DNA of 56,099 bases from an uncultured Piscirickettsiaceae bacterium. GTDB taxonomy: Bacteria; Pseudomonadota; Gammaproteobacteria; GCF-002020875. The first letter of the stretch is position 1. Every line of letters begins with the position of its first letter. The notes below the pieces were generated by a model. The model was not told the DNA's origin, ran no database searches, and saw only the letters and a program-made list of their open reading frames with translations. Below, one piece after another: positions 4,059 to 54,410 of the stretch. The stretch spans positions 4,397-60,495 of the forward strand of contig CAYQBY010000006.1 in NCBI GenBank assembly GCA_964415865.1, written 5' to 3'. The position numbers were made by a program, and so were the translations under genes.

Positions 4059-4645
4059 GGTTCTTCTCTACCTTTAACCTCAAGAAGCATATATCGTACC
4101 TGACCGGCATCGCCCTTGCGAGCCACACCCCAGCCAGATGGTATTTGTAGTTCATCTGCCCCCTGCTCCACCTCAATATATAGTCGAAGTTTTGGAGATA
4201 GCACTGACCTATCCAGCAACAAAAATACCTTCTCCAACATATCCTTGTTAAATGGTGGATCCAGGAATATGAGATTGTATGGAGAGAGATCCCTCTTCTC
4301 CAAAAACAGAAAGGCATCCTCTCTAAACACCTCTCCCCTATCACTTTTCAACAACTCTAGATGCTCACCAATTGCCCTTGCACTCTTCTGCTCCCGCTCC
4401 ACAAAATCTACATGTGATGCACCTCTTGAAAGAGCCTCCAGACCAAGTGCACCACTACCTGCAAAAAGGTCCAGACAATATGCCCCTGCAATAGTTGGCT
4501 GTAGCCAGTTGAATAGGGTCTCTCGTACCCTGTCCGGAGTGGGGCGAATCCCGGGGTTATCAGGGAAGGTTAAAATGCGCCCTCGCCACTCTCCGGCAAT
4601 GATCCTGAGGCGTCTACCGCCTCCCGATTTCCCCTTTTTTGCCAT
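4055..4645 (-). CDS. rsmD: 16S rRNA m2G966 methyltransferase
   Basis: [40 protein letters not shown]. Confidence 0.95.
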
Positions 4646-4667
4646 ACCGAGTTGTTTTTGTTACGAC

Positions 4668-5972
4668 CTAATCAATCTTTCCGCCCACAATAACCGTTAC
4701 CATCTCTGATGGGTGCAGTCGATGCTTGAATGCATTCTTGATGCTCTCGCCAGTTACCGTCTCAACCTTCTGGTTAAAGGTATCAAGGTAGTCATCAGGC
4801 AGACCATAGAAACCCATCATCCCCAGATAATCGATAATCTTCTTGTTGCTATCAATCCGTAGAGGAAAGCCACCGGTAATATTCTTTTTAGACCGTATCA
4901 GCTCCTCAATGCCTGGTCCCTGCTCAATAAAATCTACTATGGTTTTACGCAGCACCTCCAGCGCCTCATCCCTGCTCTCATTCTTGGTCTGCAGACCGGC
5001 CTTGAATGGTCCTTCTCCAGCCATTGGTGAAAAATAGCTATAGGCACTATAGGCTAGCCCGCGCTCCTCTCGCACCTCTTCGGATATTTTTGAGACCAGG
5101 CCACTTCCACCCAATATATGGTTACCAACGTAAAGGTTGAAATAGTCGGGATCACCTCGACGCAACGATGGATGCCCCATCAACAGATGACTCTGTACCG
5201 ATGGATAATCAATCCTGATCGTTTCACCAGGCTTTGCAGTCACTGCATCTGGTAATTTTGGTGCCTTATCCCCCATTGGTATGCTGCCCACGACTCTCTC
5301 TGCAATCTTCTTGGCTTGATCTCTACCAACATCCCCAACAATTGCAATAACTGCATTTCTTCCAACATAGTACTGCGCGTGGAATCTGCGTAGATCACTG
5401 CGCCTCAGTGCCTTGACACTCTTTTCTGTTCCACTTGATGGCTCTGCATAGGGGTGGGACCCATACATTGCCCTGAAGAGTGCCTTTTCTGCAATGGTTC
5501 CGGGTGACTGTTTCTGGGCCTGAATCCCAACCAATTGGCGACTACGCTCCCGTTCAAAGGCATTTTTTGGGAAAGATGGATGGTGAATAACATCGGCCAT
5601 TACCTCAAGCGCAGGATCCAGTAGATGGTCATCACTCAGACTACGCAGTGACACCACCGCCATATCACGCAGGGAGTCAAAACCAAGGTTAGCCCCTAGT
5701 CTGTCCATGGTCTCTGCGATTGCCTCCTCCCCCCGTATTCCTGTGCCAGTAGAGAGTAGACCATTAGTCATTGCTGCTATCCCTCCCTTTTTGCCATCTC
5801 GTGCACTTCCTGCGTCAAAGATCACCCTGATATCGACCATTGGAATCTCAGGTGTATGTACATAGAGAACCTGGGCTCCACTAGCTGTACTCCAGCGCTC
5901 AATCTGTGGTGTTGCCGATGCGACCAGAGAGAATAGCAGACTGATTATCAAAACAGATGCTCTGCTAGTCAT
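4668..5972 (-). CDS. M16 family peptidase, non-catalytic (beta-like) subunit, secreted
   Basis: M16 fold without HxxEH, REERGLAY motif, signal peptide; ATG 5972 overlaps the upstream gene's stop. Confidence 0.88.
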   Translation of the reverse strand: MTSRASVLIISLLFSLVASATPQIERWSTASGAQVLYVHTPEIPMVDIRVIFDAGSARDGKKGGIAAMTNGLLSTGTGIRGEEAIAETMDRLGANLGFDSLRDMAVVSLRSLSDDHLLDPALEVMADVIHHPSFPKNAFERERSRQLVGIQAQKQSPGTIAEKALFRAMYGSHPYAEPSSGTEKSVKALRRSDLRRFHAQYYVGRNAVIAIVGDVGRDQAKKIAERVVGSIPMGDKAPKLPDAVTAKPGETIRIDYPSVQSHLLMGHPSLRRGDPDYFNLYVGNHILGGSGLVSKISEEVREERGLAYSAYSYFSPMAGEGPFKAGLQTKNESRDEALEVLRKTIVDFIEQGPGIEELIRSKKNITGGFPLRIDSNKKIIDYLGMMGFYGLPDDYLDTFNQKVETVTGESIKNAFKHRLHPSEMVTVIVGGKID

Positions 5973-7347
5973 GATGTTTCTCCTTGTTGGTCTCTCCATC
6001 TATCGGAAGAGGATCCAGAACTGCTGTCGTTATCTGATCAAAATCGAGATATTTGTCTGCCACAGCCATCACCTGTTCTGCTGTTACCTTGCGAATATTC
6101 TCTGCATAGCGATCTGCCTCCTGCCAATCAAGACCAATAGTCTCCAGGGTGCCAATCTGCATCGCCTGATAAAACACTGAATCACGCTCAAAAACCTTGG
6201 CCGCCACTACCTGCGCCTTTACTGTGTCAAGCTCAGTTTTTGTAACTGGGTCTCTTTTAATATCATTTAACTCTGTCAGTAGAGCTTGTTTTACCTCTGC
6301 AACTGTATATCCTTTTCCAGGAACACCCTCCACAATGAAGAGTGTCTGTAGTCGATCATAGGGGTCATACCCAACCCCGGCACTGGTCGCAATCTCTGTT
6401 CCACGAACCAGTCTTTTATTAAAACGTGCGCTATCTCCTCCATCCAACACATACGCCATCACCTCCAGGGCATATGGCTCCCATGGTTGCTCAGCCGTAA
6501 CCACGGTTGGAACCGGAAACCCCATGATCAGATACGGGATCTCGGCAGGAACCCTGACCGTCACCTCTCGCGCTCCCAACTGCCTGGTCTCCATTCGAGG
6601 TTTTGGTGGATTTAGTACTGATGGCTCAAGAGGGCCGTAATACTTATTGGCCATCTTGATCACCTCATCTGCGTCAACATCACCTGCAACTACCAGGGTG
6701 GCATTGTTAGGGGCATACCACATCGCATACCACTTTCGCAGATCCTCAATATCGTAGTTTTCAATATCATTCATCCATCCTATTACCGGGTGGTGGTAGG
6801 GGCTGGTCTGAAATGCAGTTGCCATAAACTGCTCGTAGGTGAGCGATGTAGGCTTGTCATCGGTACGCATCCTGCGCTCCTCCTTAACCACCTCGCGTTC
6901 CTTGAGAAACTCCTCCTCTGGCAGGGTCAGATTACGCATGCGGTCTGACTCCAGCTCCATGCTGATGGGAAGACGGCTCTTTTCCAGACGTTGGAAGTAG
7001 GCGGTATAGTCACGGCCGGTAAAAGCATTCTCACGTCCACCATTCTCCGAGATGATCTTTGAAAATTCATTGGGTCCGTGCTTCTCTGTCCCCTTGAACA
7101 TCATATGCTCCAATATATGGGAGATACCGGTAATGCCATCAGTTTCATAGCTGGAACCAACCTTATACCAGACCTGTGAAACCACAACTGGTGCCCGATG
7201 ATCCTCCTTGACTATAACCTTCATCCCATTGTCCAGCATAGCCTCTGTAACATTGGCTGCAGTTCCCATCGAGGGAACTACCAATATGGTAAGCATAGTA
7301 AACAGTGCCTTACCAGAATCCATTTTTCTCAGGCAATTCAGATTCAT
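5965..7347 (-). CDS. M16 family zinc peptidase, catalytic subunit
   Basis: HILEHMMFKGT (HxxEH), NAFT, EERRMR. Confidence 0.93.
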   Translation of the reverse strand: MNLNCLRKMDSGKALFTMLTILVVPSMGTAANVTEAMLDNGMKVIVKEDHRAPVVVSQVWYKVGSSYETDGITGISHILEHMMFKGTEKHGPNEFSKIISENGGRENAFTGRDYTAYFQRLEKSRLPISMELESDRMRNLTLPEEEFLKEREVVKEERRMRTDDKPTSLTYEQFMATAFQTSPYHHPVIGWMNDIENYDIEDLRKWYAMWYAPNNATLVVAGDVDADEVIKMANKYYGPLEPSVLNPPKPRMETRQLGAREVTVRVPAEIPYLIMGFPVPTVVTAEQPWEPYALEVMAYVLDGGDSARFNKRLVRGTEIATSAGVGYDPYDRLQTLFIVEGVPGKGYTVAEVKQALLTELNDIKRDPVTKTELDTVKAQVVAAKVFERDSVFYQAMQIGTLETIGLDWQEADRYAENIRKVTAEQVMAVADKYLDFDQITTAVLDPLPIDGETNKEKHHD

Positions 7348-7615
7348 TTAACTTATTCCTTGTAACATCAATGACGCAGAGATTGTACCCGAGAAGACAT
7401 CGCATAGAGAGAGAAGTTCAACAACAGCAGGCAGGATAACGCCTCAACTATCTTATTGATTAATAGTGATATTGTTGTAAACCCTATATTTCTATATAGT
7501 TGTAGCCAAGGCTATAATTGGTTAAGTCTTCGTTAATCGTCGATGGAGGAGAGAGACGATCGCTCGAGCTCCATCATAATAAAATATAAATCCCGTACGG
7601 GAGGAGTGATTGGCC

Positions 7616-10048
7616 ATGAAACTAAGTCGTTCAGCTACGCTGGCGGGTAGCGTTCTGGTTTTTGCTATTGCAGCCGGTTGTGGTGCACAACAACAAACAG
7701 TATACAAGCCCATCAAAGAGCGCGCTTACGGGGCTGATGCAGCGGCTGCTGTGGCAGATCCAATCAAACCCAAGAATGAGTACAATATCAGCCTGAACTA
7801 TGAGCTCGGCATGCATTGTACTGGCTTTGATTTCACCTACTGCTGTGTACTTCCACCTTATAATTCTGTCCAGGCGCAAGTCATCAAGACTGCGGTAGGC
7901 GCCAAGAAGTGGCCTGAGGTGCTGGAGTCTGACGAGGAGGAACATGACATCCTCGTTGATGGCAAGAAACGGATGAAAATCAAGTTTGGCCATACTGACA
8001 ACACCTACTCAGAGGGTGACAAGCTCGCCTACTGGGACATCAAATATGATGTTAATGGTGACGGCAAATACACTGAGAACGAGAATGTTGCCAACGCCTA
8101 CTTCACTCATCTCTATGTTTACAAGGATCTAAAGGCATCGAATCCCGACGGAACTAGCGCAGATAGCAAAAAATCCAGGGTGGGAATCGAGATTCCCATT
8201 CCTAAGGATAACGGACCTGCTGGTGCCGCAGTCCCAAGCCCAATGAGTGGCGGACATCTACACTACTCTGGCGTGAAGGGCACTACTGTATTTACCAAGT
8301 CACCTGTACTGGACAATGTACCAATCGTACTGACCAACCCTGGCATTTGGGATGCTCTAGGTCTGGCACTCACCCCATGGCAGGACAGCATCATGAAACG
8401 TGATCCACTGAACATGCTGGAGAGCGAGATTCGCCCGTTCCAGGAGTCCTGGGCTGCGCTGGTTGATGCCGAGTCTGGTGAGGCCATCATCGATGGCGTC
8501 AACGGTAAGCCTGTTCACTTTATTGGAACAAGCCCTATTGATGTACCTAACTGTGCAAACTGTCACTCCAACAAGAATGCCAATGGGGACAAATACAATC
8601 TCTGGAAAGGTGAGAAAGCATTCTGGAAAGCATTGGGTGCAAGTGAGTGGATTGCAAATCTGAAGGGAACATCGCTCTCTATTCTTGAGATGCATGACGA
8701 CAAGCATGGAACGGACTTCCTCAAGAACTACGATCCAGGCTCACGCTCCAAGGACAATCGTCTGGGTGGGGATCCTATTCTCTGTCAAAAGTGTCATGCA
8801 GATAACGTAATTGGCGTACTTCAATCCAAGAAAGTTAGTGACGTGATTCCTGGTGGTGAGGATAGAGTAATCATGCCTCTGACAGAGGCCATTCATCTGG
8901 TTCATCAGGAGAAGCGCCCTCAACCAGATAGCCAGGGCCGCACTGGTGGCTGTCAGGGCTGCCACCCATCACACCGTCAAGACGGCAATATGGATCGCTA
9001 TCCAATGACTGCGGATGGTGAAAACTTTTTTGCCAATGCGGATAACCGTGATGGCGAAGGCTGTTTCGCTGGCCGCGATGTCCACTCCAACCCTTACAAG
9101 GATAAGGATGGAGCAGGCACGCCAGAGCACCTGAATGCGATTGGTAGCTGGATTCAGGCCAATGTCTCCAACATCGGTAACGGTGAGGGTGGCAAGGGTC
9201 TCTGGTGCACCAACTGTCATTCACCTCTGGCCAAAGCCCTCTACCAAAAAGATAACCTTACACATGCATTCCGTCAGGAAGGCACTACCCTGCGTGACAA
9301 GTCTCTGGAAGAGATTGCAGCCGGCATCGGTGTTGATATGGCAACCTTGGAGTCAATGATGGATCCCAAGGTGGTACTCGATGCCGATGGCAACGACACC
9401 CCAGGAAAATCTCAGATCCTTGCGCTATGGGATCCAGAGGTTTCCCATCCAGATATTGCGGTCATTGCTATCAAGGATGGCGGACCCATGGGCTCCAAGG
9501 ATGAGGATGGTGACTTTAGTGTTATTCCGCTCTCTGCCAACCCTGCTGTAGATGTTGCATCTCTGGCCCTGCCTGAGGGTGCTGATGGTGCAATGGCAGT
9601 ACCCTACAATGCTGCAACGCATGGCAAGTCCTACTGGCTATCTGCGGGTGAACCACACTGTGCAGATTGTCACGCTGCCCCCTATGTTGAGGGTCAGGGT
9701 GGTGTTGCATTCCCAATCAACCAACCAGGCAAATACAGTTTGATGCGTTATACCAAGGGACATGCTGGTCTGGCCTGTCAGGTATGTCATGAGTCAATTC
9801 ATGGCCTTTACCCTGTAACGGCTGACGTGGATAGCACTACCTACAAGCAGGCAGCACAGTTCAATCCTGATGGTTCTCACGGACCCATGGTCTGTGCAGC
9901 TTGTCACTATACCAATGAAACCGGTGTGCCTCTGATTGCAAATAAAGAGGAGTGGGAAGGCAAATCCATAATGGATGACTTCGATGCCGCGGTATCCTGG
10001 ATGCATGCAAGCGCACCAGACCTCGGTGGAGCAATCCCGGACGAATGA
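7616..10048 (+). CDS. Large multiheme c-type cytochrome, probable lipoprotein (7 CxxCH)
   Basis: CANCH, CQKCH, CQGCH, CTNCH, CADCH, CQVCH, CAACH; lipobox-like AAGC; SD GGAGGAG at 7600-7606 (TTG 7610 is an alternative start). Confidence 0.88.
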   Translation: MKLSRSATLAGSVLVFAIAAGCGAQQQTVYKPIKERAYGADAAAAVADPIKPKNEYNISLNYELGMHCTGFDFTYCCVLPPYNSVQAQVIKTAVGAKKWPEVLESDEEEHDILVDGKKRMKIKFGHTDNTYSEGDKLAYWDIKYDVNGDGKYTENENVANAYFTHLYVYKDLKASNPDGTSADSKKSRVGIEIPIPKDNGPAGAAVPSPMSGGHLHYSGVKGTTVFTKSPVLDNVPIVLTNPGIWDALGLALTPWQDSIMKRDPLNMLESEIRPFQESWAALVDAESGEAIIDGVNGKPVHFIGTSPIDVPNCANCHSNKNANGDKYNLWKGEKAFWKALGASEWIANLKGTSLSILEMHDDKHGTDFLKNYDPGSRSKDNRLGGDPILCQKCHADNVIGVLQSKKVSDVIPGGEDRVIMPLTEAIHLVHQEKRPQPDSQGRTGGCQGCHPSHRQDGNMDRYPMTADGENFFANADNRDGEGCFAGRDVHSNPYKDKDGAGTPEHLNAIGSWIQANVSNIGNGEGGKGLWCTNCHSPLAKALYQKDNLTHAFRQEGTTLRDKSLEEIAAGIGVDMATLESMMDPKVVLDADGNDTPGKSQILALWDPEVSHPDIAVIAIKDGGPMGSKDEDGDFSVIPLSANPAVDVASLALPEGADGAMAVPYNAATHGKSYWLSAGEPHCADCHAAPYVEGQGGVAFPINQPGKYSLMRYTKGHAGLACQVCHESIHGLYPVTADVDSTTYKQAAQFNPDGSHGPMVCAACHYTNETGVPLIANKEEWEGKSIMDDFDAAVSWMHASAPDLGGAIPDE

Positions 10049-10079
10049 TAAATTCCCTGCATTGATATTTCAAAGGCGA

Positions 10080-11369
10080 ATGAAAATAATAACAAAATGG
10101 GTTCAATGGCTGCTGGTTGCCAGCATCTCTCTGACTGGATACAACACTGCTTACTCCGCAGAACAGGCTACACCCCTGGTCACTGTTGGGGATTACACCA
10201 TTACAGATTATGATATCGAGCGTGTCATTGTGAGCTCTCCATTGGCAGATCAATATCCAACACTTAATGAGAAGGATCAAGCCGCAATGCGGGGCGCCAT
10301 TCTTATGCGACTGGTAAACTTGCAGCTGCTCTACCTTGAGGCCCTTGATCGGGGAATGGAGCAGGATCCCACATTCATTGCCGACCGTGAGGACTTCATA
10401 AAAGGAATCACCTATAAGCTCTATATGGACAGGCTGAGAGCATCCATCAAAATTCCAGATACAGTGATGAGCGAACTGCTATCTCGGCTAAAAGGGAATT
10501 CCGGCGCTCTGGATGCATCTATCGCACAGTACAAGGCACAACAGTACAAGTTGGTCCGCTCCCTGGCCCTTAAAAAGATTCGTGATCAGGTACATCTTGC
10601 TGTTCATGAAGACCGTATAACCCCGGCAATTACCCCTAAAACAATTCTGGCAGAGGCTGACAACTACATAGTCAGCTTTTCTGATCTTGGGATTAAATTT
10701 GAAGACAAGGATGACTTCCATGCAGCAACTATTGAGGAACGCCTTTATCAAAGGCTGGAGGTTGATCTGGTCAACATGGTCTCCAAAGAGATATCTAACG
10801 GGCTAAAAAATAGGATTGAGTCATTCTCCAGAGAGCGCCTGCCGGCCATGCTGCTCATGCAAAAGGAGAATGAGTGGGCGCCAGATCGCGCCGCAGCACG
10901 TGCCTACTTTGAACAGCACCGTGAGCTTGGATTTATCCCGGAACAGCGAATGATTTCGCAGATTGTGCTTGATAGCAGAGAAAAGGCAGAGGCAATAAAA
11001 AAACGTATTCTCGCAGGGGAGAGCTTCTTCCGTATGGCAAAACTACACAGTATTGACCCCTATGGACGCAAAAATGCCGGCCAGATGGGATGGCTTACAA
11101 AAGGGAAAGCCATGCCTGCAATCGAACAGGTGCTGGAGAACATGCAGGAAGAGGATATTAGTGAGATTGCAGAGACCGGAAAAGGGTTCCATCTAATCCT
11201 GTTACAAGGCATAAAGCCATCCATTCAGCATGAATATGAGGAGGTTTATGACCGTGTTCGTCAGGCGATCACCGATGAATATCTCCCTCCATTTGTACGC
11301 TCACTGCAACATAAATACAAGATCGAGTTTGCAGACCCTGTTGCCGAAATTCCACTAGAGAATCCCTGA
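10080..11369 (+). CDS. PpiC/parvulin-type peptidyl-prolyl isomerase (PrsA/SurA-like foldase), secreted
   Basis: Signal peptide from ATG 10080; C-terminal rotamase motifs FFRMAKLHSIDP..GQMGW and ETGKGFHLI. Confidence 0.85.
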   Translation: MKIITKWVQWLLVASISLTGYNTAYSAEQATPLVTVGDYTITDYDIERVIVSSPLADQYPTLNEKDQAAMRGAILMRLVNLQLLYLEALDRGMEQDPTFIADREDFIKGITYKLYMDRLRASIKIPDTVMSELLSRLKGNSGALDASIAQYKAQQYKLVRSLALKKIRDQVHLAVHEDRITPAITPKTILAEADNYIVSFSDLGIKFEDKDDFHAATIEERLYQRLEVDLVNMVSKEISNGLKNRIESFSRERLPAMLLMQKENEWAPDRAAARAYFEQHRELGFIPEQRMISQIVLDSREKAEAIKKRILAGESFFRMAKLHSIDPYGRKNAGQMGWLTKGKAMPAIEQVLENMQEEDISEIAETGKGFHLILLQGIKPSIQHEYEEVYDRVRQAITDEYLPPFVRSLQHKYKIEFADPVAEIPLENP

Positions 11370-11423
11370 TTCTCAGGCTTGTGATGTTATCCTTTCACAA
11401 ATATCATCACGGAACTGGATACA

Positions 11424-12377
11424 ATGTTTGGATTTGGAAAAACCCCGGGACAAGAGAAGAAGCCGGGGGTCATCAAAAGCCTGAAAGAGAGATTATCTCG
11501 CACCCGCTCAAACCTGAGTGATGGCTTGGGCACCCTGTTGCTCGGCAGGAAAACTATAGATGATGATCTACTGGAAGAGCTGGAGAACCGTCTGCTAACA
11601 GCAGATATAGGCATAGAGGCTACTCAGGAAATTCTCACACAGACCACAGAGAGACTAGCCAGAAAAGAGGGGAACGACCCGGAGGCAATGCTTGATGCAC
11701 TGAAAACCAGCATGCTGGAACTGCTCTCGCCCCATGAGTCCCCTCTTCAACCAGAAACAGCCTCCCCCTACGTCATTCTGATGGTAGGAATCAATGGTGC
11801 TGGTAAAACAACTACTATTGGGAAACTAGCCAAACAGCTTCAGAATAGCGGGAAGTCTGTAATGCTGGCTGCCGGAGATACTTTTCGTGCCGCTGCGGTG
11901 GAACAGCTCCAGAGCTGGGGTGAGCGCAATGATATTCCTGTCATCGCGCAGCATACTGGGGCGGACAGTGCCTCTGTGCTCTACGATGCGGTTGAATCGG
12001 CACGTGCCAAAGGGGTTGATGTGCTTATTGCAGATACAGCTGGTCGCCTCCATACCCAGTCTAATCTGATGGAGGAGCTAAAAAAAGTTAAGCGGGTGAT
12101 GCAAAAGCTGGATGACTCAATTCCTCACGAAATAATGTTGATCCTTGATGCTGGTACCGGACAGAATGGGGTGCATCAGGCAGAGCAATTTCATGAGGCC
12201 GTGGGGATTACCGGTATATCCCTCACCAAAATGGATGGAACGGCCAAAGGGGGGGTTATCTTCGCCATTGCAAAACAGCTCGCCATTCCAATCAGATTTA
12301 TCGGTGTCGGGGAGGGAATTGATGACCTCAGACCCTTCAATGCAACCGAGTTTATAGACGCCATACTCTCAGAATAA
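11424..12377 (+). CDS. ftsY: SRP receptor FtsY (NG domains only)
   Basis: GINGAGKTTT, DTFRAAA, DTAGR, TKMDGTAKGG. Confidence 0.97.
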   Translation: MFGFGKTPGQEKKPGVIKSLKERLSRTRSNLSDGLGTLLLGRKTIDDDLLEELENRLLTADIGIEATQEILTQTTERLARKEGNDPEAMLDALKTSMLELLSPHESPLQPETASPYVILMVGINGAGKTTTIGKLAKQLQNSGKSVMLAAGDTFRAAAVEQLQSWGERNDIPVIAQHTGADSASVLYDAVESARAKGVDVLIADTAGRLHTQSNLMEELKKVKRVMQKLDDSIPHEIMLILDAGTGQNGVHQAEQFHEAVGITGISLTKMDGTAKGGVIFAIAKQLAIPIRFIGVGEGIDDLRPFNATEFIDAILSE

Positions 12378-12447
12378 TCTATATATCTTATTGTTTTATA
12401 TCATGTTTTCTGCACATATCACAGAAAAAACTGTCCTCTTGCAGAGG

Positions 12448-12474
12448 GAACTATAACAGCAGTTAGCACTCTAA
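12448..12474 (+). promoter_or_regulatory. SigmaE (RpoE)-type promoter of rpoH
   Basis: GAACTA-N16-TCTAA versus consensus GAACTT-N16-TCTRA. Confidence 0.7.
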
Positions 12475-12489
12475 TCTTGCGAGTGCTAA
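12463..12489. promoter_or_regulatory. CIRCE element (HrcA operator)
   Basis: Perfect TTAGCACTC-N9(taatcttgc)-GAGTGCTAA upstream of rpoH. Confidence 0.95.
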
Positions 12490-12505
12490 TTTTAGCTATT
12501 ATAAT
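12477..12505 (+). promoter_or_regulatory. Sigma70-type promoter of rpoH
   Basis: TTGCGA-17 nt-TATAAT; -35 lies inside the CIRCE. Confidence 0.7.
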
Positions 12506-12535
12506 CGTAGATATAGAAAACAGAGAGATAAATTA

Positions 12536-13399
12536 ATGAGTTACGCCCTTCAGCCAATCAATGTCCAATTTCCTGCCGCAACAGTCGACAGTGTTGACGC
12601 CTATCTTCAGAGCCTGAGAAAATTTCCTATTCTCAGCCAGGAAGAGGAACAGGAGTTAGCCATTCGCTTTCACGAGCAGGGTGATCTGGAGGCAGCACGC
12701 CAACTGGTTATCTCAAACCTGCGCTTTGTGGCCCATATTGCCAGAGGATATCTTGGATATGGTCTACCACTGGCTGACCTGATTCAGGAGGGAAATCTTG
12801 GACTGATGAAGGCAGTGCGTCGTTTTGATCCAGAGCGAAAGGTTAGACTGGTCTCATTTGCTGTCCACTGGATCCGCTCGGAAATTCATGAATACGTTCT
12901 CCGTAACTGGAGCATCGTAAAGGTTGCTACAACCAAGGCTCAACGCAAACTGTTCTTCAATCTGCGCAGCTCCAAAAAACGTCTGGGATGGTTCTCTCGT
13001 GAAGAGGTGGAGACCGTTGCCAAGGACCTCAATGTCAAACCGGAAACCGTGCTGGAGATGGAGCACCGTCTAAGTCACCACGATGCATCATTTGACCTCC
13101 CGATGGGGTGTGATGACGAGGATGATCACTTCTCTCCGTCCGCTTTTCTCAAGGCACCAGAATCAACACCTGAACAAGAGCTGGAAGAGAGTGACTGGAG
13201 AGAACAGTCAATCAACATGATGAGATCAGCTCTAACCACTCTGGATGAGCGCAGCAGAAATATCATTGTCCAGCGCTGGCTCGATGAGGAGAAGAGTACT
13301 CTTCAGGATTTAGCTGATGAATATGGAGTCTCTGCTGAACGTATTCGTCAACTGGAACAGAATGCCCTCAAAAAACTGCGAGGGTGCATTACGCTCTAA
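12536..13399 (+). CDS. rpoH: RNA polymerase heat-shock sigma factor sigma32
   Basis: RpoH box [33 protein letters not shown]. Confidence 0.97.
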
Positions 13400-21631: not shown

Positions 21632-23173
21632 CTAGTCAGCCAGATATTGCCTATTAAGCTGATTGTCTCCCTTCAGGGCTGCCATGGCCTGCTCTCGCTC
21701 CTCCCCATAGAGCCTTCCCAGCAGGTGTTCTGCCTCTTTGGTATTTATGGTGCCATCAAGCATTCCATGATCGGCTATCAATACTATTAGAGCTTTTCTA
21801 TTAGCTGAGCGCTCAAACAGCGACACCATTGATGGTACACCCATTGGCATCCCCAGATAATTTCTTGTCTGCCCGTTCTCTCCCATAAGCGCCCTGAGTG
21901 TGCTGTAACGATCCATACCAACCATATCTCCCAACAAGGCTGTTGCAGCCTCAACTCCCAATCTGTTTTCAATAAGGCCGCGATCAACCATAAATCCAAT
22001 CAGCTCATTCCTGTAAGCCGCCTTATTCATCAATTGCACTGCTCCTTGGGCAGTAACTGGAGATGTGATGTAACTTTTCCCCAGCTCGTTATTTCCCAAC
22101 AGGGAGATAACGGCATCGTGTCTATCTGCGCGGGTGGTTCCCTCCAGCAGAGTAATAGCATCAGCTACAGAGATACCATCAATAATGACCCCTTGGTCCG
22201 CCATCAATCCAATCATCTCATCACGGTATGCTATCTCACCAAGAAGCGCGTAAATCTCGTTTACATCGAGAGGCGCTTGCAGATACTCTCTCTGCTGTTG
22301 ATTGAATCCCAGTAGTGATTTCAGGGTCTCGAAACGGTCTGTATGCTCAACTCCCTCCAGCATCTTTGTTGTCTCAACAGCTGTTAATTTGTTGGCAAAA
22401 ACCCCTCTATCTGAGAAATAGTTAATCAGTTCAGACCTCAGTGCCACACTCTCAAGCAGACGCTCTACCTCGGCAAAGCCAAGAGGAAGATTCAGATAAT
22501 CCCGCTTCTGCTGATTGGAGCCCAACAGCGCCTTGACAGAATCATGACGATCCATGCCGCTCTGGACCCGCATCATCTTCTCTGCACCATCGACAGAAAA
22601 ATCTCCCACAAGAATTGCTCTATCTGCCATATAGCGAATCATGCCTGCACGATTTGCACTTCTGGAGAGTAATACATCTACCTGATCAACTCCCAGGGTG
22701 GATGCTGCATAGCTTTTTTCCCCCCGATTGGAACCCAGAAGCGCCTTTAGAGAACGATCATAATCATCTGCACCCATCTCACCAATCAGTGACTGCATCT
22801 CTGCCACACTGAAGTTTCCTGCAGGAATCTCAGAATCAGCCATATGGGCAAGCAGATCACTACGCTGTTCGCCAACATTCTCCAGAATCGCACTGATCTG
22901 CTGTACATTCAGGAAACCAGGGAACATGCTTCTTTTATAGCGGTTGGCTCCCAACAGTGATTTTGCGGCATAGTATCTATCAGTCCCTGTTAGCCCCTGT
23001 AATAGCTCAATACCTTTTTTAGCAGAAAACTGTCGCCCCTCCCAGCCAGTGTCCGCCATCTTGGTAATAGCTACTCTTTTGTCATAGCCACTCTTCCCCT
23101 GCAGTTCGGTTGCAGAATCTGCAACTGCAACAACTGAAAAAGCCAACAATGTTAACGAGATAATTTTAATCAC
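21632..23173 (-). CDS. Secreted hypothetical protein made of ~71-aa tandem repeats
   Basis: GTG start with SD AAGGGAG, signal peptide, recurring MAD..DR..LLGxN..Y pattern. Confidence 0.85.
   Translation of the reverse strand: MIKIISLTLLAFSVVAVADSATELQGKSGYDKRVAITKMADTGWEGRQFSAKKGIELLQGLTGTDRYYAAKSLLGANRYKRSMFPGFLNVQQISAILENVGEQRSDLLAHMADSEIPAGNFSVAEMQSLIGEMGADDYDRSLKALLGSNRGEKSYAASTLGVDQVDVLLSRSANRAGMIRYMADRAILVGDFSVDGAEKMMRVQSGMDRHDSVKALLGSNQQKRDYLNLPLGFAEVERLLESVALRSELINYFSDRGVFANKLTAVETTKMLEGVEHTDRFETLKSLLGFNQQQREYLQAPLDVNEIYALLGEIAYRDEMIGLMADQGVIIDGISVADAITLLEGTTRADRHDAVISLLGNNELGKSYITSPVTAQGAVQLMNKAAYRNELIGFMVDRGLIENRLGVEAATALLGDMVGMDRYSTLRALMGENGQTRNYLGMPMGVPSMVSLFERSANRKALIVLIADHGMLDGTINTKEAEHLLGRLYGEEREQAMAALKGDNQLNRQYLAD
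21635..23059 (-). repeat. Protein-level tandem repeat: 72+71x5+48 aa (about 213-bp period, diverged at DNA level)
   Basis: Units start MADTG, MADSE, MADRA, FSDRG, MADQG, MVDRG, IADHG; each has DR/ER-like..(L/M)GxN..Y. Confidence 0.9.
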
Positions 23174-42969: not shown

Positions 42970-43275
42970 TTGTTTTTGATTGAACAGACAGAGCGATTTA
43001 AGAAATGGCTACAGAAACTGAAAGACCCAATTGGTAAGGCAGCCCTCATCCGCAGGTTGAATCGTCTTAAACAGGGGCATGCTGGAGATAGTAAACCTAT
43101 TGGGGATGCGATATATGAATTAAGAGTACATGCTGGCCCCGGTTATCGTGTCTACTACCTGCACGAAGATGAGCAGATCATTCTGCTGCTATGCGGAGGA
43201 GACAAAGGATCGCAGCAACGTGATATAGAACAGGCAAAAAAACTTGCCCAGGAGAAGAGAGATGAAAACCACTGA
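42970..43275 (+). CDS. Type II TA toxin, RelE/ParE superfamily (HI1419-like)
   Basis: F.KWL.KLKD, G..GD.K.IG..I.ELR.H.GPGYRVY, LLCGGDK.SQ.RDI. Confidence 0.92.
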   Translation: MFLIEQTERFKKWLQKLKDPIGKAALIRRLNRLKQGHAGDSKPIGDAIYELRVHAGPGYRVYYLHEDEQIILLLCGGDKGSQQRDIEQAKKLAQEKRDENH

Positions 43276-43573
43276 ATTTGATCCAGCACTATACCTTGAT
43301 AGTGAAGAGGTGATTGCGGAGTACCTGTCACAGATTATTGAAGAGGGTGATACAGAGGAGGTATTGGAAGCAATTGGTCATATCGCCAAGGCCCGGGGTA
43401 TGACACAGATAGCCAAAGATAGCGGACTTGGTCGGGAATCTCTATATAAAGCATTTGCCCCTGGCGCTAAACCCCGTTTTGAGACTGTAATGCGGGTTAT
43501 CCGGACTCTCGGAGTCCAATTGCATGCAGTTCCACAACAGAGCGAACATGGCACAGTAGCCCATTCTCACTAG
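43262..43573 (+). CDS. Type II TA antitoxin (HI1420-like HTH)
   Basis: FDPA.YLDSEE.I.EYL, IAKARGMTQIAK.SGL.RESLYKA, PRFET. Confidence 0.92.
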   Translation: MKTTEFDPALYLDSEEVIAEYLSQIIEEGDTEEVLEAIGHIAKARGMTQIAKDSGLGRESLYKAFAPGAKPRFETVMRVIRTLGVQLHAVPQQSEHGTVAHSH

Positions 43574-51875: not shown

Positions 51876-53747
51876 CTAATAAATGTACTGAAGACTTTTC
51901 ATAGTGTTTTTGAGCCCTCTTATAGAGTCTGCAATCTCATTTTTCATGTCCGTTTCTTTCTGCACGCTCTTTGCCTGACCCCCCTCCAGCTCACTCTTTG
52001 AGAGCATTGATTTTCCGAATGCACTCTTTCCACAGGATAAACACACTACATCTGTCTGAGCCCCCAAATACTTGATAAAAGGTAGAGAGGCAAATGTATT
52101 CCCGTTCAAATCAAAGTGATCGCCATTACTAACTTCGACGGGCTCCAACCAGAACCCTTCTATGAATTTATTATTGTATTCAGAAAATAGCAGATATTTT
52201 CCATCATCTACATCATCAAATGAGTATGAGCCATCTATAGATACCATATCTCTTTTCGTATCATTTGAACCTATCTCAATCAAGACATTCTTTACAAACT
52301 CACTTTTAAGCCCTTCACGCAGGCCTGGTATCTTGAATTCCTGAGAAAATTTTTCTTCCAATACAGCTAACCCATCATATATTTCTACACTAACATTATC
52401 TGCTAAGCAGGAAAGCAGGGCTTCAGAGACACGATTTAGATCAGCAACTGCGTTGCTGACATCTAATTTTATCTGCGAGTCACTTTCACACAACTCAACC
52501 TGATCAAACCAGGAGGTTAGTTCATCCAGATTAGCCGAAGCCTTATAGTCAGCGACAAGTCGCTCATGACTGTTTGACAGTTTATTGATAGCACGATCCT
52601 CCTCTATGCTAACCTTTGCGTTTAAAGCCTCATAATCAGATGCTAGCTCCACTAATGCTTTTTCAAAATTTACAATTTTAAAATCTTCAGAAAATTCATT
52701 GTTTGATAAAACAATCTTGGCCGTATCAATAACATCATTTATATAAGAAATTTTGCCATCGGTTTCATTCCTAACAGGTGTACTACTTACAGTAAAATTT
52801 GTTACCACGATTTGATCCGGCCAAATCCTTTTACTGTAGCTACTTCCATAAGTAGACATACTATGTCTCTCAACCATCAACTTAGTTGTTGCATCATACA
52901 CGCTTGGGCCATTCCAATAGGAATACATACTAACGGACGATGAAGGAGAAACTGGACAGTTCTTCTTGAACCCATACTTATCCTCACTATCCTCAATATT
53001 GATGCTTATTTGCTCACCAATTTTTACTCCTTTGGCATATGCATCAACCTCAAGACTGTGGATACAATATTGAGTTTTGTTATTAAGATGCCAATTTTCT
53101 ATAATGCCATTCTCCTCGGGCACAAACGCAACTTTTATACTGTTACTAATGTCATCTTGTAATTTGCTTGAAAGTTGCTGTACTTTTATTTCTTTTTGCT
53201 CTTGAAGCTCTGTTATCTTCTTTAAGATTTCTGTTTTTTCAGACAAATACTCCTTGTTAACATCGCTTATTTTTTCCTCTTTCTTGGTAGATAATTCTGC
53301 TATTTTCTTCAGAATTTCTGTCTCTTTTTTTTGAAACTTCTTATAAGAAGTTTCACTGCTAGAAACCATGCTACTGATCTTTGCTTTCAATAATCCACAT
53401 CCTCCCTCTGGCACTGATTTCCTACTTACTAATTTAGATAACTGAGATTGCAGATTACTCTTCTCAGCACCAATAAATTTAGAGGCTTCGCTACATACTA
53501 CCTTCATCTCATTAATGTTTTGTGCTGAAATAGTGTTATATGCAGACTTAAATGCTGGATAAAAAAGATCCACATCTGTTTCAACAGGAATAAGATATAC
53601 AAATCTTCCAGCAGCAGGTATAACAGCCCCATCATTTCTAACCAGAAAAATATCACCGCTAATTTTTCCACTATCAAAATATGCTGATGCAAGAGGTGAT
53701 ATGGCCATTGCTACTAAGCAATATTTAGCTAATATTGTTCTTCCCAT
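51876..53747 (-). CDS. Secreted hypothetical protein with coiled coils and a split beta-sandwich-like domain
   Basis: SD AGGTGAG and signal peptide from ATG 53747; long AT-rich ORF. Confidence 0.8.
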   Translation of the reverse strand: MGRTILAKYCLVAMAISPLASAYFDSGKISGDIFLVRNDGAVIPAAGRFVYLIPVETDVDLFYPAFKSAYNTISAQNINEMKVVCSEASKFIGAEKSNLQSQLSKLVSRKSVPEGGCGLLKAKISSMVSSSETSYKKFQKKETEILKKIAELSTKKEEKISDVNKEYLSEKTEILKKITELQEQKEIKVQQLSSKLQDDISNSIKVAFVPEENGIIENWHLNNKTQYCIHSLEVDAYAKGVKIGEQISINIEDSEDKYGFKKNCPVSPSSSVSMYSYWNGPSVYDATTKLMVERHSMSTYGSSYSKRIWPDQIVVTNFTVSSTPVRNETDGKISYINDVIDTAKIVLSNNEFSEDFKIVNFEKALVELASDYEALNAKVSIEEDRAINKLSNSHERLVADYKASANLDELTSWFDQVELCESDSQIKLDVSNAVADLNRVSEALLSCLADNVSVEIYDGLAVLEEKFSQEFKIPGLREGLKSEFVKNVLIEIGSNDTKRDMVSIDGSYSFDDVDDGKYLLFSEYNNKFIEGFWLEPVEVSNGDHFDLNGNTFASLPFIKYLGAQTDVVCLSCGKSAFGKSMLSKSELEGGQAKSVQKETDMKNEIADSIRGLKNTMKSLQYIY

Positions 53748-53808
53748 GCTGCTCTCACCTACGAATAATTGCTGTTTAATTAAAATCAAGAAAATAGATA
53801 ATGTCGAT

Positions 53809-54375
53809 CTATTGCTGCTCTACCTTTTCACATTTTTTGTAGGATGCCCAAACAAGCTGGTGTGTATCCTTGTTTATCTGCAACTCACTTAAGACGCCAT
53901 TATTATCCGTCCATCCCATATAGACTTGATCGCTTTTGCTTGTTGATGCTCCAGCACCCCAAAGTGTAAAGTTACTTTTACTGGCAAAATCTACAAGCTC
54001 ACGTATATCCTCTGCCATTCCTGCAGCATCCTCATGTTTTTTCTTCACACGAACCTGTGAAACTGCACCCTCAAAAACTTTGTCTTTTAGAGCTGGGGCA
54101 CATGAATCAAACCTGATTACAAGATCATAATTATTTTCTACGGACCCAACAGCCTCTCTCTCATTATCATCAAGCTTGACCGCATAATTTCCATATGCGG
54201 CATAATTTGAATCCACATCCAATAACACAAGACCATCGCTACGGTAAAGAGATAGCGTGGATATTAGCGGAGCATCAATCTCTCCATACATCCATTCAGC
54301 CCATGAAGCCATATTTCCAGCATGTGCATGTAATGAAAAAAATAAGGTGGCGACAGTAATGATTACTCTATTCAT
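53809..54375 (-). CDS. Secreted hypothetical protein
   Basis: Signal peptide ending AHA; SD AAGGA; two Cys. Confidence 0.75.
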   Translation of the reverse strand: MNRVIITVATLFFSLHAHAGNMASWAEWMYGEIDAPLISTLSLYRSDGLVLLDVDSNYAAYGNYAVKLDDNEREAVGSVENNYDLVIRFDSCAPALKDKVFEGAVSQVRVKKKHEDAAGMAEDIRELVDFASKSNFTLWGAGASTSKSDQVYMGWTDNNGVLSELQINKDTHQLVWASYKKCEKVEQQ

Positions 54376-54410
54376 AACGTTAATCCTTGTGATGCTTGAA
54401 CAGTATCTTA

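Follow-up and report, generated by a model that had tools for sequence, protein, structure and literature searches.

A conserved seven-haem cytochrome and its neighbouring PpiC-type isomerase in a Piscirickettsiaceae bacterium: a candidate periplasmic oxidoreductase

Introduction

What does a large multihaem cytochrome do that belongs to no named enzyme family and whose gene is followed closely by that of a secreted foldase? This question is raised by a locus of an uncultured Piscirickettsiaceae bacterium (contig CAYQBY010000006.1), which lies in a 56,099-nucleotide stretch of DNA referred to here as the window. An initial annotation of this stretch proposed a lipoprotein cytochrome that would act as a catalytic enzyme, possibly in sulfur or nitrogen redox chemistry, with a possible atypical eighth haem or thiol/metal site. 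Here, we describe the cytochrome, its family and its genomic context, and discuss whether it is likely to be an enzyme, an electron carrier or a surface protein.

The cytochrome gene and its product

The cytochrome gene (P0001, 810 aa; 7616..10048, forward strand) is defined by the list of open reading frames, its translation and its seven CxxCH motifs. It extends from an ATG at 7616 to a stop codon at 10046-10048, and a TTG at 7610, upstream of this ATG, is a possible alternative start. A GGAGGA ribosome-binding site is located about 10 nt 5' of the ATG, at about 7601-7606. Together with the start of an RNA contig, it marks a 5' leader that is likely to be the promoter-proximal region of the gene (7508..7615, forward strand), where a scan for the sigma-70 consensus gave a site count no higher than that of shuffled sequence. 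A signal peptide with a lipobox (…FAIAAG-C22) is read from the sequence at 7616..7681 of the same strand.

P0001 contains exactly seven CxxCH motifs, at C313, C390, C446, C531, C682, C721 and C760, so that both the size and the motif number given in the annotation are correct. Because the first haem motif appears only at residue 313, the N-terminal region of about 300 residues is free of haem, again as annotated. The total of 19 cysteines comprises 14 in haem motifs, C22 of the lipobox (AAGC), and C68, C76, C77 and C483. The two strings that had been quoted for extra cysteines, GMHCTGFDFTYCCVLPPYN and GCFAGRDVH, are residues 65-83 and 482-490 of P0001, respectively. Each of the seven motifs is kept in at least 99% of relatives (150-232 aligned), indicating that the motif set is not due to chance. 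Ten histidines outside the motifs are also at least 99% conserved among the aligned relatives, which is enough to give each of the seven haems a bis-His ligand pair. By its CxxCH motifs, its signal peptide and these conserved putative axial ligands, the predicted product is a c-type cytochrome. The designation as a lipoprotein applies to P0001 itself but not to the family as a whole; according to rule-based calls, the lipobox is present in 44 of the 75 complete homologues and absent from the other 31, with a few ambiguous cases among these.

A large, previously unnamed cytochrome family

Judged by sequence similarity, P0001 is a member of a large, previously unnamed cytochrome family. Among 8000 candidates scored, 947 are related to P0001 at E ≤ 1e-3, 419 matches are found among 50%-identity representatives, and a relative is encoded on at least 550 genomic stretches. 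The 120 relatives listed are 66-95% identical to P0001, and their source names, where given, are 'hypothetical' or 'cytochrome c3 family'. Outside the genus, identity to P0001 is 64-72% across Alpha-, Beta- and Gammaproteobacteria, whereas the neighbouring isomerase is just 29-42% identical in the same loci. This shows a strong constraint along the full length of the cytochrome, haem-free parts included.

The annotation did not recognise the protein as MccA, HAO, NrfA or OTR, and searches with HMMs and solved-structure sequences agree. Pfam and NCBIfam searches at E ≤ 1 detected no family of the MccA, HAO, NrfA or OTR type, and no entry of the curated HMM libraries, solved-structure sequences or, with haem-less models, solved folds matched the P0001 family. 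Searches of all Protein Data Bank chain sequences with phmmer and with a 72-sequence family profile yielded only chance-level matches at E ≤ 10, none of them a cytochrome. Foldseek and VIA-align found no cytochrome match for the model of the whole protein or of residues 300-810, although a common core could go unnoticed in such models, which lack haems. The HAO/OTR/ONR octahaem family was rejected by its model PF13447, which does not match P0001 at E ≤ 1 but readily recognises two octahaem proteins of the HAO family encoded in this genome, with scores of 87 and 140 bits. The pentahaem nitrite reductase NrfA was also rejected, P0001 having neither CXXCK nor a match to an NrfA family in Pfam or NCBIfam.

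Domain organization and a candidate site

An AlphaFold2 model of P0001 (pLDDT 83.8, pTM 0.86), together with alignment A1 of relatives, outlines the domain organization, with all features on the forward strand. A haem-free, beta-rich N-terminal domain of about 260 aa (residues ~45-305; 7748..8530) is followed by a first haem region with four CxxCH motifs (residues 306-545; 8531..9250, from A1), by a haem-free alpha/beta insert seen in the secondary structure of the whole-protein and partial models (residues 546-663; 9251..9604), and by a second haem region with three motifs including CHxSxHGLxPV (residues 664-810; 9605..10045, from A1 and PF14522). Residues 56-307 of the model are mostly strands by DSSP. 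The Pfam search gave no match in the N-terminal domain, whose top structural match reaches a Z score of only 3.1, to Ig/p53/velvet-like sandwiches. In distant relatives, the insert varies or has been lost (A1).

Conservation among relatives highlights two short segments. The H67-C68-x7-C76-C77 motif belongs to the N-terminal domain (7814-7846), and C483-H490 (9062-9085) is part of a loop in the first haem region, in which A1 shows no variation at D476, R478, G482, C483, R487, D488 and H490. H67 is kept in 154/154 relatives. C68, C76, C77 and C483 are all kept in 131 of the 134 relatives that span both regions, and two distant relatives lack all four at once; C483 is retained in 131/134 full-length and 49/50 partial relatives. 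Because the extra cysteines form a conserved set, the annotated idea of a thiol or metal site remains a plausible one. The atypical eighth haem fares differently. A pattern search of P0001 revealed no C-x(5-20)-CH and no CXXCK, and clustering of neighbouring genes in 80 loci revealed no dedicated lyase of the CcmF/NrfE type travelling with the cytochrome. Because both the atypical motif and the lyase are missing, an eighth covalent haem is unsupported.

The foldase and the conserved neighbourhood

The gene for a secreted SurA-N/PpiC (parvulin) peptidyl-prolyl isomerase-chaperone, assigned by Pfam (P0002, 429 aa; 10080..11369, forward strand), starts with an ATG at 10080, 31 nt past the cytochrome stop, just as annotated. 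P0002 consists of a signal peptide, a SurA_N_3-like region (24 bits, under the cut-off of 27.2) and a PpiC rotamase domain, for which PF00639 scores 56 bits (cut-off 21.7); PF13616 (51.8 bits) and PF13145 are also above their cut-offs. Because an NCBIfam search found no equivalog at or above cut-off, P0002 is not SurA, PpiD, PrsA or NifM proper.

The isomerase accompanies the cytochrome in 78 of the 80 genomic loci, directly downstream in 74 and upstream on the same strand in 4, and one of the two loci without it stops 226 nt beyond the cytochrome gene. The annotation had named in advance a lack of co-conservation as a reason to abandon its proposal; the two genes are co-conserved. A gene for a TlpA/DsbE-like thioredoxin (WxxWCxPC) is present in 64/80 loci and directly 3' of the isomerase gene in 54. 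A c4-like dihaem cytochrome gene is found in 34, an ankyrin-repeat gene in 13, and a NapC/NirT gene adjoins the cytochrome in 24 of these 80 loci; NapC/NirT genes are encoded somewhere in the genome in 39 of 43 carriers. CcmF occurs in merely 7/80 loci, each time within a whole ccm operon. The same clustering detected no FeS/NrfD cluster and no conserved porin or decahaem gene. In the window, the thioredoxin, NapC and c4 genes are absent beside the cytochrome-foldase pair, and within its own genus neither a NapC-like nor a TlpA-like gene co-varies with the cytochrome.

Genomic insertion, RNA libraries and carrier genomes

The pair is flanked by two M16 peptidase genes (4668-7347, reverse strand) and ftsY (11424-12377), in agreement with the annotation. 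The annotation held these flanking genes to be directly divergent in related gammaproteobacteria such as Pseudomonas. Within the organism's own genus, M16a and ftsY lie side by side and divergently oriented in four of the five cytochrome-negative congeners examined; in the fifth, ftsY was not found within the 1.5 kb inspected. The cytochrome is carried by 5 of the 14 other species of the genus. The cytochrome-foldase pair is thus accessory in this genus, inserted between ftsY and the genes for the M16 peptidases.

Seawater metatranscriptome contigs from two RNA-seq libraries of one study contain the pair (7508-12378 and 7654-11253). In run X5, contigs start at 7508 and extend to 12378, with none on 7294-7507, and run X6 has no contigs on 7311-7653; DNA run X1 is continuous over the intergenic stretch where both show gaps. 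The RNA-library contigs span the junction of the cytochrome and foldase genes, but such contigs may include DNA, and their depth cannot rank expression.

Most carriers are sulfur oxidisers. SoxB is above cut-off in 31/42 and DsrB in 34/43 carrier genomes, and one or both are found in 36/42, or in 37/42 when a dsrB split over two frames is counted. Four of the five carriers (among 42) without SoxB and DsrB are MAGs labelled as methanotrophs. NirS is also frequent (29/43), and DsrB is present in all 17 genomes of the organism's own family, whether or not they have the cytochrome. Because most carriers fall in sulfur-oxidising clades, the association is confounded by phylogeny; it fits the annotated suggestion of possible sulfur redox chemistry.

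Comparison with known systems

PpiC-type isomerase genes also adjoin genes of other secreted redox proteins. UetB of the Uet cluster (PMC10734462) and MofB of mofABC (PMC5566968) are assumed to be folding factors of their partners. These partners, an undecahaem/NHL set and a multicopper oxidase, respectively, are unrelated to P0001. The presence of a NapC/NirT gene beside the cytochrome in 24/80 loci recalls the NapC/NirT-linked enzymes NrfHA and HAO-c554-cM552. Conserved cysteines near haem motifs are a hallmark of sulfur-transforming cytochromes such as TsdA, SoxAX and DsrJ. However, P0001 has no HMM match to NrfHA, HAO, TsdA, SoxAX or DsrJ.

The likeness to MccA/SirA is broader. Both are large periplasmic multihaem c proteins with seven CxxCH motifs and extra cysteines, which are functionally important in MccA/SirA; both have thioredoxin and PPIase maturation genes alongside (MccB is the PPIase of MccA/SirA systems), and the hosts metabolise sulfur. 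The motif number, the cysteines and the similar accessory genes would thus fit a divergent octahaem sulfite reductase whose eighth haem has escaped recognition. However, membership in MccA/SirA is highly improbable, since P0001 has no CX12-15CH-type motif, MccA chains of the Protein Data Bank are unmatched at E ≤ 10 by sequence or profile, and no similarity in sequence or, with haem-less models, in fold is detectable. P0001 also has the additional N-terminal beta domain of about 260 aa. Furthermore, no dedicated lyase gene stands beside the cytochrome gene, whereas SirEFG is essential for SirA (PMC6976685), and the 80 loci contain no conserved partner genes of the FeS/NrfD type represented by MccC/MccD, which MccACD uses (PMC8076601); where a membrane link of the P0001 family is encoded nearby, it is NapC/NirT or c4 instead. 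[quoted passage not shown]

Electron carrier, surface cytochrome or enzyme

P0001 shares several features with MtrC, OmcA, MtrF and UndA, raising the possibility of an outer-surface lipoprotein that exchanges electrons with minerals, electrodes or partner cells. It has a lipobox, and beta-rich alternate with haem-rich regions, the order beta, haem, mixed, haem in the model resembling the I-IV layout of MtrC. The C68-x8-C77 spacing equals that of the CX8C disulfide motif of MtrC domain III, PF22113, the model for the pentahaem domains II/IV of these cytochromes, scores 29.6 bits, just under its cut-off of 30, and Big_9, cadherin-like, PKD or He_PIG domains, Ig-type domains typical of surface proteins, occur in 16 of the 22 scanned relatives that are distant or match only in part. 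However, PF22113 is non-specific: it also matches control genomes such as E. coli, and in a six-frame search of the organism's own genome it gives 34.7 bits for NapC, 32.5 for an HAO-like octahaem protein and 21.8 for the cytochrome. No MtrC, OmcA, UndA or MtrF chain emerged from sequence and profile searches of solved structures; for the haem-less model, MtrC (6qyc_A) is at Foldseek rank 21 with an E of 1.3 and is not in the VIA-align list. In the genome, which is 99.6% complete, the sole secretin scores 184 bits against a GspD cut-off of 351 and a search for MtrB/PioB gave no match, while no porin or decahaem neighbour is conserved in the 80 loci. Moreover, P0001 has 7 haem motifs compared with 10-11 haems in the known lipoproteins, and conservation is far higher in its family. 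A surface role is therefore improbable. The absence of the lipobox from 31/75 homologues, the lack of conduit genes and the periplasm-facing nature of the partners encoded nearby point to a periplasmic location.

A periplasmic protein could act solely as a wire, hub or capacitor that links NapC/NirT or c4 to other redox enzymes without a catalytic site. The PPIase and the thioredoxin would then merely aid the folding of a large multihaem protein, whose extra cysteines would form structural disulfides. The ten conserved histidines would suffice for seven bis-His haems with no open site, no atypical haem motif is present, and the Pfam likenesses are to electron-transfer types only, Cytochrome_C7 (PF14522; 29.1 bits on residues 717-768) and c3-type cytochromes (19.9 bits). 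PPIase genes also stand beside non-enzymatic multihaem clusters, as with UetB in the Uet cluster (PMC10734462). However, identity of 64-72% over 800 aa is maintained across three proteobacterial classes, with about 380 haem-free residues included, and the four cysteines are kept together or lost together. A wire needs neither a large conserved haem-free domain nor an invariant Asp/Arg/His/Cys loop, and the sequences of MtrC/OmcA and other carrier cytochromes change far more rapidly than this. A pure electron-transfer role thus seems rather unlikely, though it is to be taken seriously. We favour, at about even confidence, a new family of periplasmic multihaem oxidoreductases that, like MccA/SirA, have maturation proteins of their own.

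Proposed function and implications

Together, the genes for the cytochrome and the foldase are the core of a module that is conserved and horizontally mobile. The cytochrome is probably exported unfolded via Sec and may receive its seven haems from the general Ccm system, with the SurA-N/PpiC protein as its putative dedicated foldase or holdase; it would be tethered by a lipid at its N-terminus in this organism and soluble in many others. In most genomes, the adjacent TlpA/DsbE-type thioredoxin may hold the cysteines reduced during maturation, a role that would fall to an unlinked copy in the present genome. The mature protein would act as a redox catalyst and not simply as a wire. Its reaction centre may form at the contact between the beta domain at the N-terminus (H67, C68, C76, C77) and the loop with C483, R487, D488 and H490, as a thiol-based or metal-thiolate site beside a haem. 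The haem chain would carry electrons between this centre and the respiratory chain, with c4-type dihaem cytochromes and/or a NapC/NirT-type quinol dehydrogenase as likely partners. The leading guess for the substrate is an inorganic sulfur compound (sulfite, thiosulfate/tetrathionate or polysulfide), and the enzyme would then be an accessory one, outside the Sox and reverse-Dsr cores.

A bolder and only tentative possibility, on the unlikely side, is that these proteins represent a novel type of multihaem enzyme in the periplasm, in which haem and a four-Cys/His centre contributed by a novel beta domain catalyse a sulfur redox step. If so, the centre would be a metal-thiolate site, such as one with Cu, or a persulfide-forming site, and the step would lie beyond the current Sox/Dsr/Fcc/Sqr schemes. 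The step might be periplasmic turnover of sulfite, thiosulfate/tetrathionate or polysulfide, linked to the pool of quinone or of cytochrome c. Such a trait would be accessory and spread horizontally among sulfur oxidisers of marine and freshwater habitats, animal symbionts among them.

Gene pair and its surroundings

The cytochrome gene runs on the plus strand from an ATG at 7616 to a stop codon at 10046–10048 and encodes 810 residues, with a GGAGGA sequence readable about 10 nt 5' of the start. The signal peptide ends in a lipobox (…FAIAAG-C22), and the protein contains seven CxxCH motifs (C313, C390, C446, C531, C682, C721 and C760) together with four cysteines outside these motifs (C68, C76, C77 and C483). 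The ATG of the foldase gene lies 31 nt after the cytochrome stop on the same strand, and its product is a secreted protein of 429 residues with a PpiC rotamase domain (PF00639, 56 bits), preceded by a SurA-N-like region whose Pfam score of 24 bits is below the cut-off. The two genes occupy 7616–11369, and the remainder of the window is housekeeping: rsmD, coaD and a pair of M16 peptidase genes lie upstream, all on the minus strand, and downstream come ftsY and rpoH. The initial annotation had described this pair from the sequence, and each detail of it that could be checked was right.

Several other features of the window are recorded here in their own right. The rpoH gene directly follows ftsY at 11424–13399 on the plus strand, with neither ftsE nor ftsX between them, in contrast to the ftsYEX order of E. 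coli and Pseudomonas. A stretch on the minus strand at 51879–56090 has a low GC content (0.37–0.39, compared with about 0.49 elsewhere) and holds ORFs of 637, 188 and 559 aa that match no Pfam family except for a SHOCT motif in the last one; it is possibly an acquired island. A small gene pair at 42970–43570 on the plus strand encodes a Gp49/HigB-like domain (PF05973) and an HI1420-type antidote domain (PF21716) and is likely to be a toxin-antitoxin module. A 513-aa ORF at 21635–23173 on the minus strand has no Pfam family at E ≤ 1e-5.

Of the words sampled from 7400–11400, two seawater RNA-seq libraries from one study contain 94% and 86%, respectively. Contigs from these libraries span 7508–12378 (run X5) and 7654–11253 (run X6), thereby bridging both genes; 7294–7507 and 12379–12534 are uncovered in X5 and 7311–7653 in X6, and all of these stretches are spanned without a break in a DNA run. 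This hints that transcription starts near 7508 and that the pair is co-transcribed, but because the contigs show neither strand nor level, it is a hint and not a proof of expression, and neither uncovered parts of the window nor contig depths were taken as evidence of expression level. A promoter and terminator consensus scan gave no more sites than shuffled sequence.

Search for known relatives

In Pfam the cytochrome gave generic multihaem signals only, namely PF14522 (cytochrome c7, 29.1 bits) and PF22113 (MtrC/MtrF domain II/IV, 29.6 bits; cut-off 30), and in NCBIfam it had no match below an E-value of 0.3. The PF22113 signal is non-specific: when the model was run over the whole genome of the organism, it gave the cytochrome 21.8 bits and scored other proteins higher, among them NapC at 34.7 bits and an HAO-like octahaem protein at 32.5 bits, and it also has matches in E. 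coli. As a positive control, PF13447 easily detected two octahaem proteins of the HAO family that this genome encodes (87 and 140 bits) and did not detect the cytochrome. Neither the single sequence nor a 72-sequence family profile matched any chain sequence of a solved structure.

The AlphaFold2 model of the cytochrome is confident (pLDDT 83.8, pTM 0.86) and predicts a beta-rich domain at residues ~50–310, a haem region with four motifs at residues 310–545, an alpha/beta insert at residues 546–663 and a second haem region with three motifs at residues 664–810. Foldseek found nothing in the PDB at E ≤ 1e-3 with either the haem-less whole model or a separate haem-less model of residues 300–810. 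In the wide VIA-align search, the best match of the whole model was a velvet domain (Z 3.1, 4.7 Å, 140 aligned residues), matches of the N-terminal domain were Ig/p53/velvet-like sandwiches with Z 3.1 at best, and the best match of the C-terminal model (residues 300–810) was a helical hairpin (Z 4.4, 2.5 Å, 47 aligned residues); no cytochrome was among the matches listed for either haem-less model. Because the models carry no haems, the fold searches mean that no known relative is detectable and do not prove a new fold. In the ESM Atlas the whole protein hit unnamed clusters only, and the N-terminal domain gave no usable match. A search for shorter relatives returned 271 matches at E ≤ 1e-5, and the 120 listed were mostly fragments and bore no informative names.

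Distribution and conservation of the family

Relatives are numerous. A search of a 90%-clustered protein collection gave 947 matches among the 8000 candidates scored, and the 120 listed are 66–95% identical and, where named, are called 'hypothetical' or 'cytochrome c3 family'. An exhaustive search of 50%-identity representatives gave 419 matches, 80 of them below 1e-30, and at least 550 genomic stretches in a species-level genome collection encode a relative. Among the carriers are symbionts of lucinid clams and tubeworms, purple sulfur bacteria, sulfur-capable Gallionellaceae, a magnetotactic alphaproteobacterium and some methanotroph MAGs. Candidates for cultivable carriers are Sedimenticola thiotaurini, Endothiovibrio diazotrophicus, Magnetovibrio blakemorei MV-1 and Ferrigenium. 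The names in the records include Sedimenticola and Sedimenticolaceae, Candidatus Thiodiazotropha, tubeworm endosymbionts, Chromatiaceae, Thiolapillus, Thiotrichaceae, Sideroxydans/Gallionellaceae/Ferrigenium, Methylococcaceae/Methylomonas, Hyphomicrobiaceae and Magnetovibrio blakemorei. In all of these named carriers the cytochrome is 64–72% identical to the window protein irrespective of class, whereas the neighbouring PPIase in the same loci is only 29–42% identical.

At least 99% of the aligned relatives retain each of the seven haem motifs and each of ten histidines outside the motifs (H67, H360, H427, H430, H453, H490, H681, H716, H729 and H797). Around C483, residues D476, R478, R487 and D488 are invariant in the family alignment. 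The quartet of C68, C76, C77 and C483 is complete in 131 of the 134 relatives that span both regions; one exception lacks C77 only, and two distant relatives lack all four. The quartet behaves as a single functional unit.

Within the genus, the cytochrome occurs in 5 of 14 other species, and several complete genomes are without it; the organism's own genome (1.54 Mb) is 99.6% complete. In four of the five cytochrome-negative congeners examined, M16a and ftsY lie immediately next to each other in divergent orientation, and among the 80 best loci the M16/ftsY flanks are common only to the two nearest relatives. The flank comparison and the patchy distribution thus identify the pair as an insertion that moves horizontally, and the flat identity across classes fits such movement.

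Conserved neighbours of the cytochrome

The neighbourhoods of the 80 best genomic loci, out of at least 550, were compared by tblastn and all-against-all ORF clustering. A PPIase homologue is present in 78 of them, directly downstream in 74 and upstream on the same strand in 4, and one of the two loci without it ends 226 nt after the cytochrome gene; the proposal that the foldase is co-conserved with the cytochrome therefore holds in these loci. A TlpA/DsbE-like thioredoxin with a WxxWCxPC motif and Redoxin/AhpC-TSA Pfam matches is encoded in 64 loci, in 54 of them directly after the PPIase. Other recurrent neighbours are a c4-like dihaem cytochrome (34 loci), a NapC/NirT tetrahaem protein (24) and an ankyrin-repeat protein (13). 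The ccm genes (CcmA in 10 loci, CcmC in 9, CcmB in 8, CcmE and CcmF in 7 each) always occur as whole operons, and in the 80 loci the cytochrome is not accompanied by a dedicated lyase of the CcmF/NrfE type. The motifs CX5-20CH and CXXCK are also absent from the cytochrome. With neither an atypical motif nor a dedicated lyase, the possible eighth haem of the initial annotation is not supported as a covalent one.

The gene order is typically c4-NapC-cytochrome-PPIase-thioredoxin in Gallionellaceae-type loci and NapC-ankyrin-(c4)-cytochrome-PPIase-thioredoxin in Sedimenticola-type loci, and the window locus consists of cytochrome and PPIase only. The best TlpA-like counterpart in the organism's own genome is unlinked (contig C23) and is the top match for 49 of 54 module thioredoxins. 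On contig C37, positions 8259–12807 encode a dihaem cytochrome c, a NapC/NirT-like protein with an acidic insert and tail, an ankyrin-repeat protein, a c4-like dihaem cytochrome and, adjoining this set, FccB, the flavoprotein of flavocytochrome c sulfide dehydrogenase. Sedimenticola-type loci have the same NapC-ankyrin-c4 trio next to the heptahaem gene. All 15 genus genomes searched contain the NapC-like gene, and neither it nor the TlpA-like gene co-varies with the cytochrome within the genus, both being found in congeners with or without it.

In one Sideroxydans MAG, ORFs at 4177–5960 of the locus (L023) were read by eye as aprB and sat, the genes for the adenylylsulfate reductase beta subunit and sulfate adenylyltransferase; just downstream of them lies the row c4-NapC-cytochrome-PPIase-thioredoxin. 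In the protein P0336, from a metagenome contig of 2648 nt, residues ~460–615 of a homologue of the heptahaem protein run straight into a TlpA-like thioredoxin domain, so that the final three haems and the PPIase are missing. Either a deletion or chimeric assembly may account for this ORF.

Cell location

By our own rule, 44 of 75 complete homologues have a lipobox and 31 lack one, a few of these being ambiguous. Homologues without it come mainly from Gallionellaceae-type, methanotroph-labelled, alphaproteobacterial and Thiotrichaceae loci and have ordinary AxA-type cleavage sites. In the organism's own genome no secretin scores as high as the GspD cut-off, and nothing matches MtrB/PioB. The conserved neighbours, namely membrane-anchored NapC, soluble c4 cytochromes, the SurA-like foldase and the TlpA-like thioredoxin, all face the periplasm. 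Because the signal type varies, no surface export route was found and the partners face the periplasm, the cytochrome is placed in this compartment, where it is predicted to be lipid-tethered in its own organism and soluble elsewhere.

Distant relatives of 1000–1900 aa (P0124, P0126, P0127, P0132–P0134 and others) combine the conserved core with extra domains, which are Big_9, cadherin-like, PKD or CarboxypepD_reg domains or class-I cytochrome c. This suggests that other lineages hold surface-exposed or fused-partner versions of the core. In a scan of 22 relatives that are distant or match only in part, 16 proved to have Ig-type domains (Big_9, cadherin-like, PKD or He_PIG) and three to have class-I cytochrome c domains, so that parts of the wider superfamily may be surface-exposed.

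Likely function and substrate

The PPIase and the thioredoxin would act as dedicated maturation factors for the cytochrome. The nearest functional analogy for the module is the MccA/SirA system with its accessory maturation genes; the mcc cluster, too, holds a PPIase gene (MccB). SirH of the Shewanella sir cluster is a TlpA/DsbE/ResA-family thioredoxin that is important but not essential for SirA maturation, and deletion of sirH causes a 48-h lag and lower SirA levels (PMC6976685). PPIase genes are found in the Uet (PMC10734462) and mof (PMC5566968) clusters as well.

We favour the reading that the cytochrome is an enzyme in which a haem adjoins a candidate centre of thiol or metal-thiolate type, because full-length conservation is very high, a large haem-free domain is conserved, and an invariant Asp/Arg/His/Cys loop coexists with an all-or-none cysteine quartet. 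Against this, all seven haems could be bis-His-ligated, leaving no open site, and the ten conserved non-motif histidines suffice for such ligation. Because the cytochrome is so conserved and has its own folding and thiol-redox helpers, it is likely to do specific chemistry.

As to the substrate of the putative enzyme, SoxB scores over the cut-off in 31 of 42 carrier genomes and DsrB in 34 of 43, and 36 of 42 have one or both (37 with a split dsrB); NirS is present in 29 of 43 and NapC/NirT in 39 of 43. Five carriers have neither SoxB nor DsrB, four of them labelled methanotroph MAGs, and three of these four also lack NapC/NirT and have a c4-like gene immediately upstream of the cytochrome. The sulfur association of the carriers is confounded by phylogeny, and every member of the organism's own family has DsrB, with or without the cytochrome. 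A sulfur compound is the leading guess for the substrate, and the role would be accessory rather than part of core Sox or Dsr.

For its size of 1.54 Mb, the organism's genome encodes unusually many c-type cytochromes (contig C33, 3622–5043, minus strand; contig C11, 26332–28170; contig C4, 8032–10026). Outside the window it encodes the two HAO-family octahaem proteins, with NapG/NapH-like ferredoxin genes read beside one of them, and a protein with nine haems and a membrane segment at its C-terminus. It also has four matches to PF02239 (cd1/NirS-type) and, on contig C3, NapC/NapB-like genes.

Novelty and significance

No description of the family was found among the papers listed in the literature searched (heptaheme proteins, also in connection with Sedimenticola; multiheme proteins in connection with symbiont genera, or with Gallionellaceae and peptidyl-prolyl isomerases), and no source record gives it a functional name. 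Table 1 of a Gallionellaceae pangenome cytochrome inventory has no seven-haem cluster, and its supplements may hold one; the relevant passages of two Sideroxydans expression papers do not mention the family. Periplasmic multihaem redox proteins that come with dedicated maturation genes are a kind of system already known. The family itself is not, and neither are the N-terminal domain and the candidate cysteine centre of its members. If the cytochrome is indeed an enzyme, the novelty could exceed that of a new family within a known kind of system.

There are signs that the cytochrome is used: it has been kept in a streamlined marine genome of 1.5 Mb, and contigs from seawater RNA libraries contain it. 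Because the module is compact, with two or three genes, it is directly testable by expression and knockout. Identification of the substrate would define a new multihaem fold family. It would also give models of how sulfur or nitrogen is cycled, both where oxic and anoxic zones meet and within chemosynthetic symbioses, a further reaction or, failing that, a further route for electrons.
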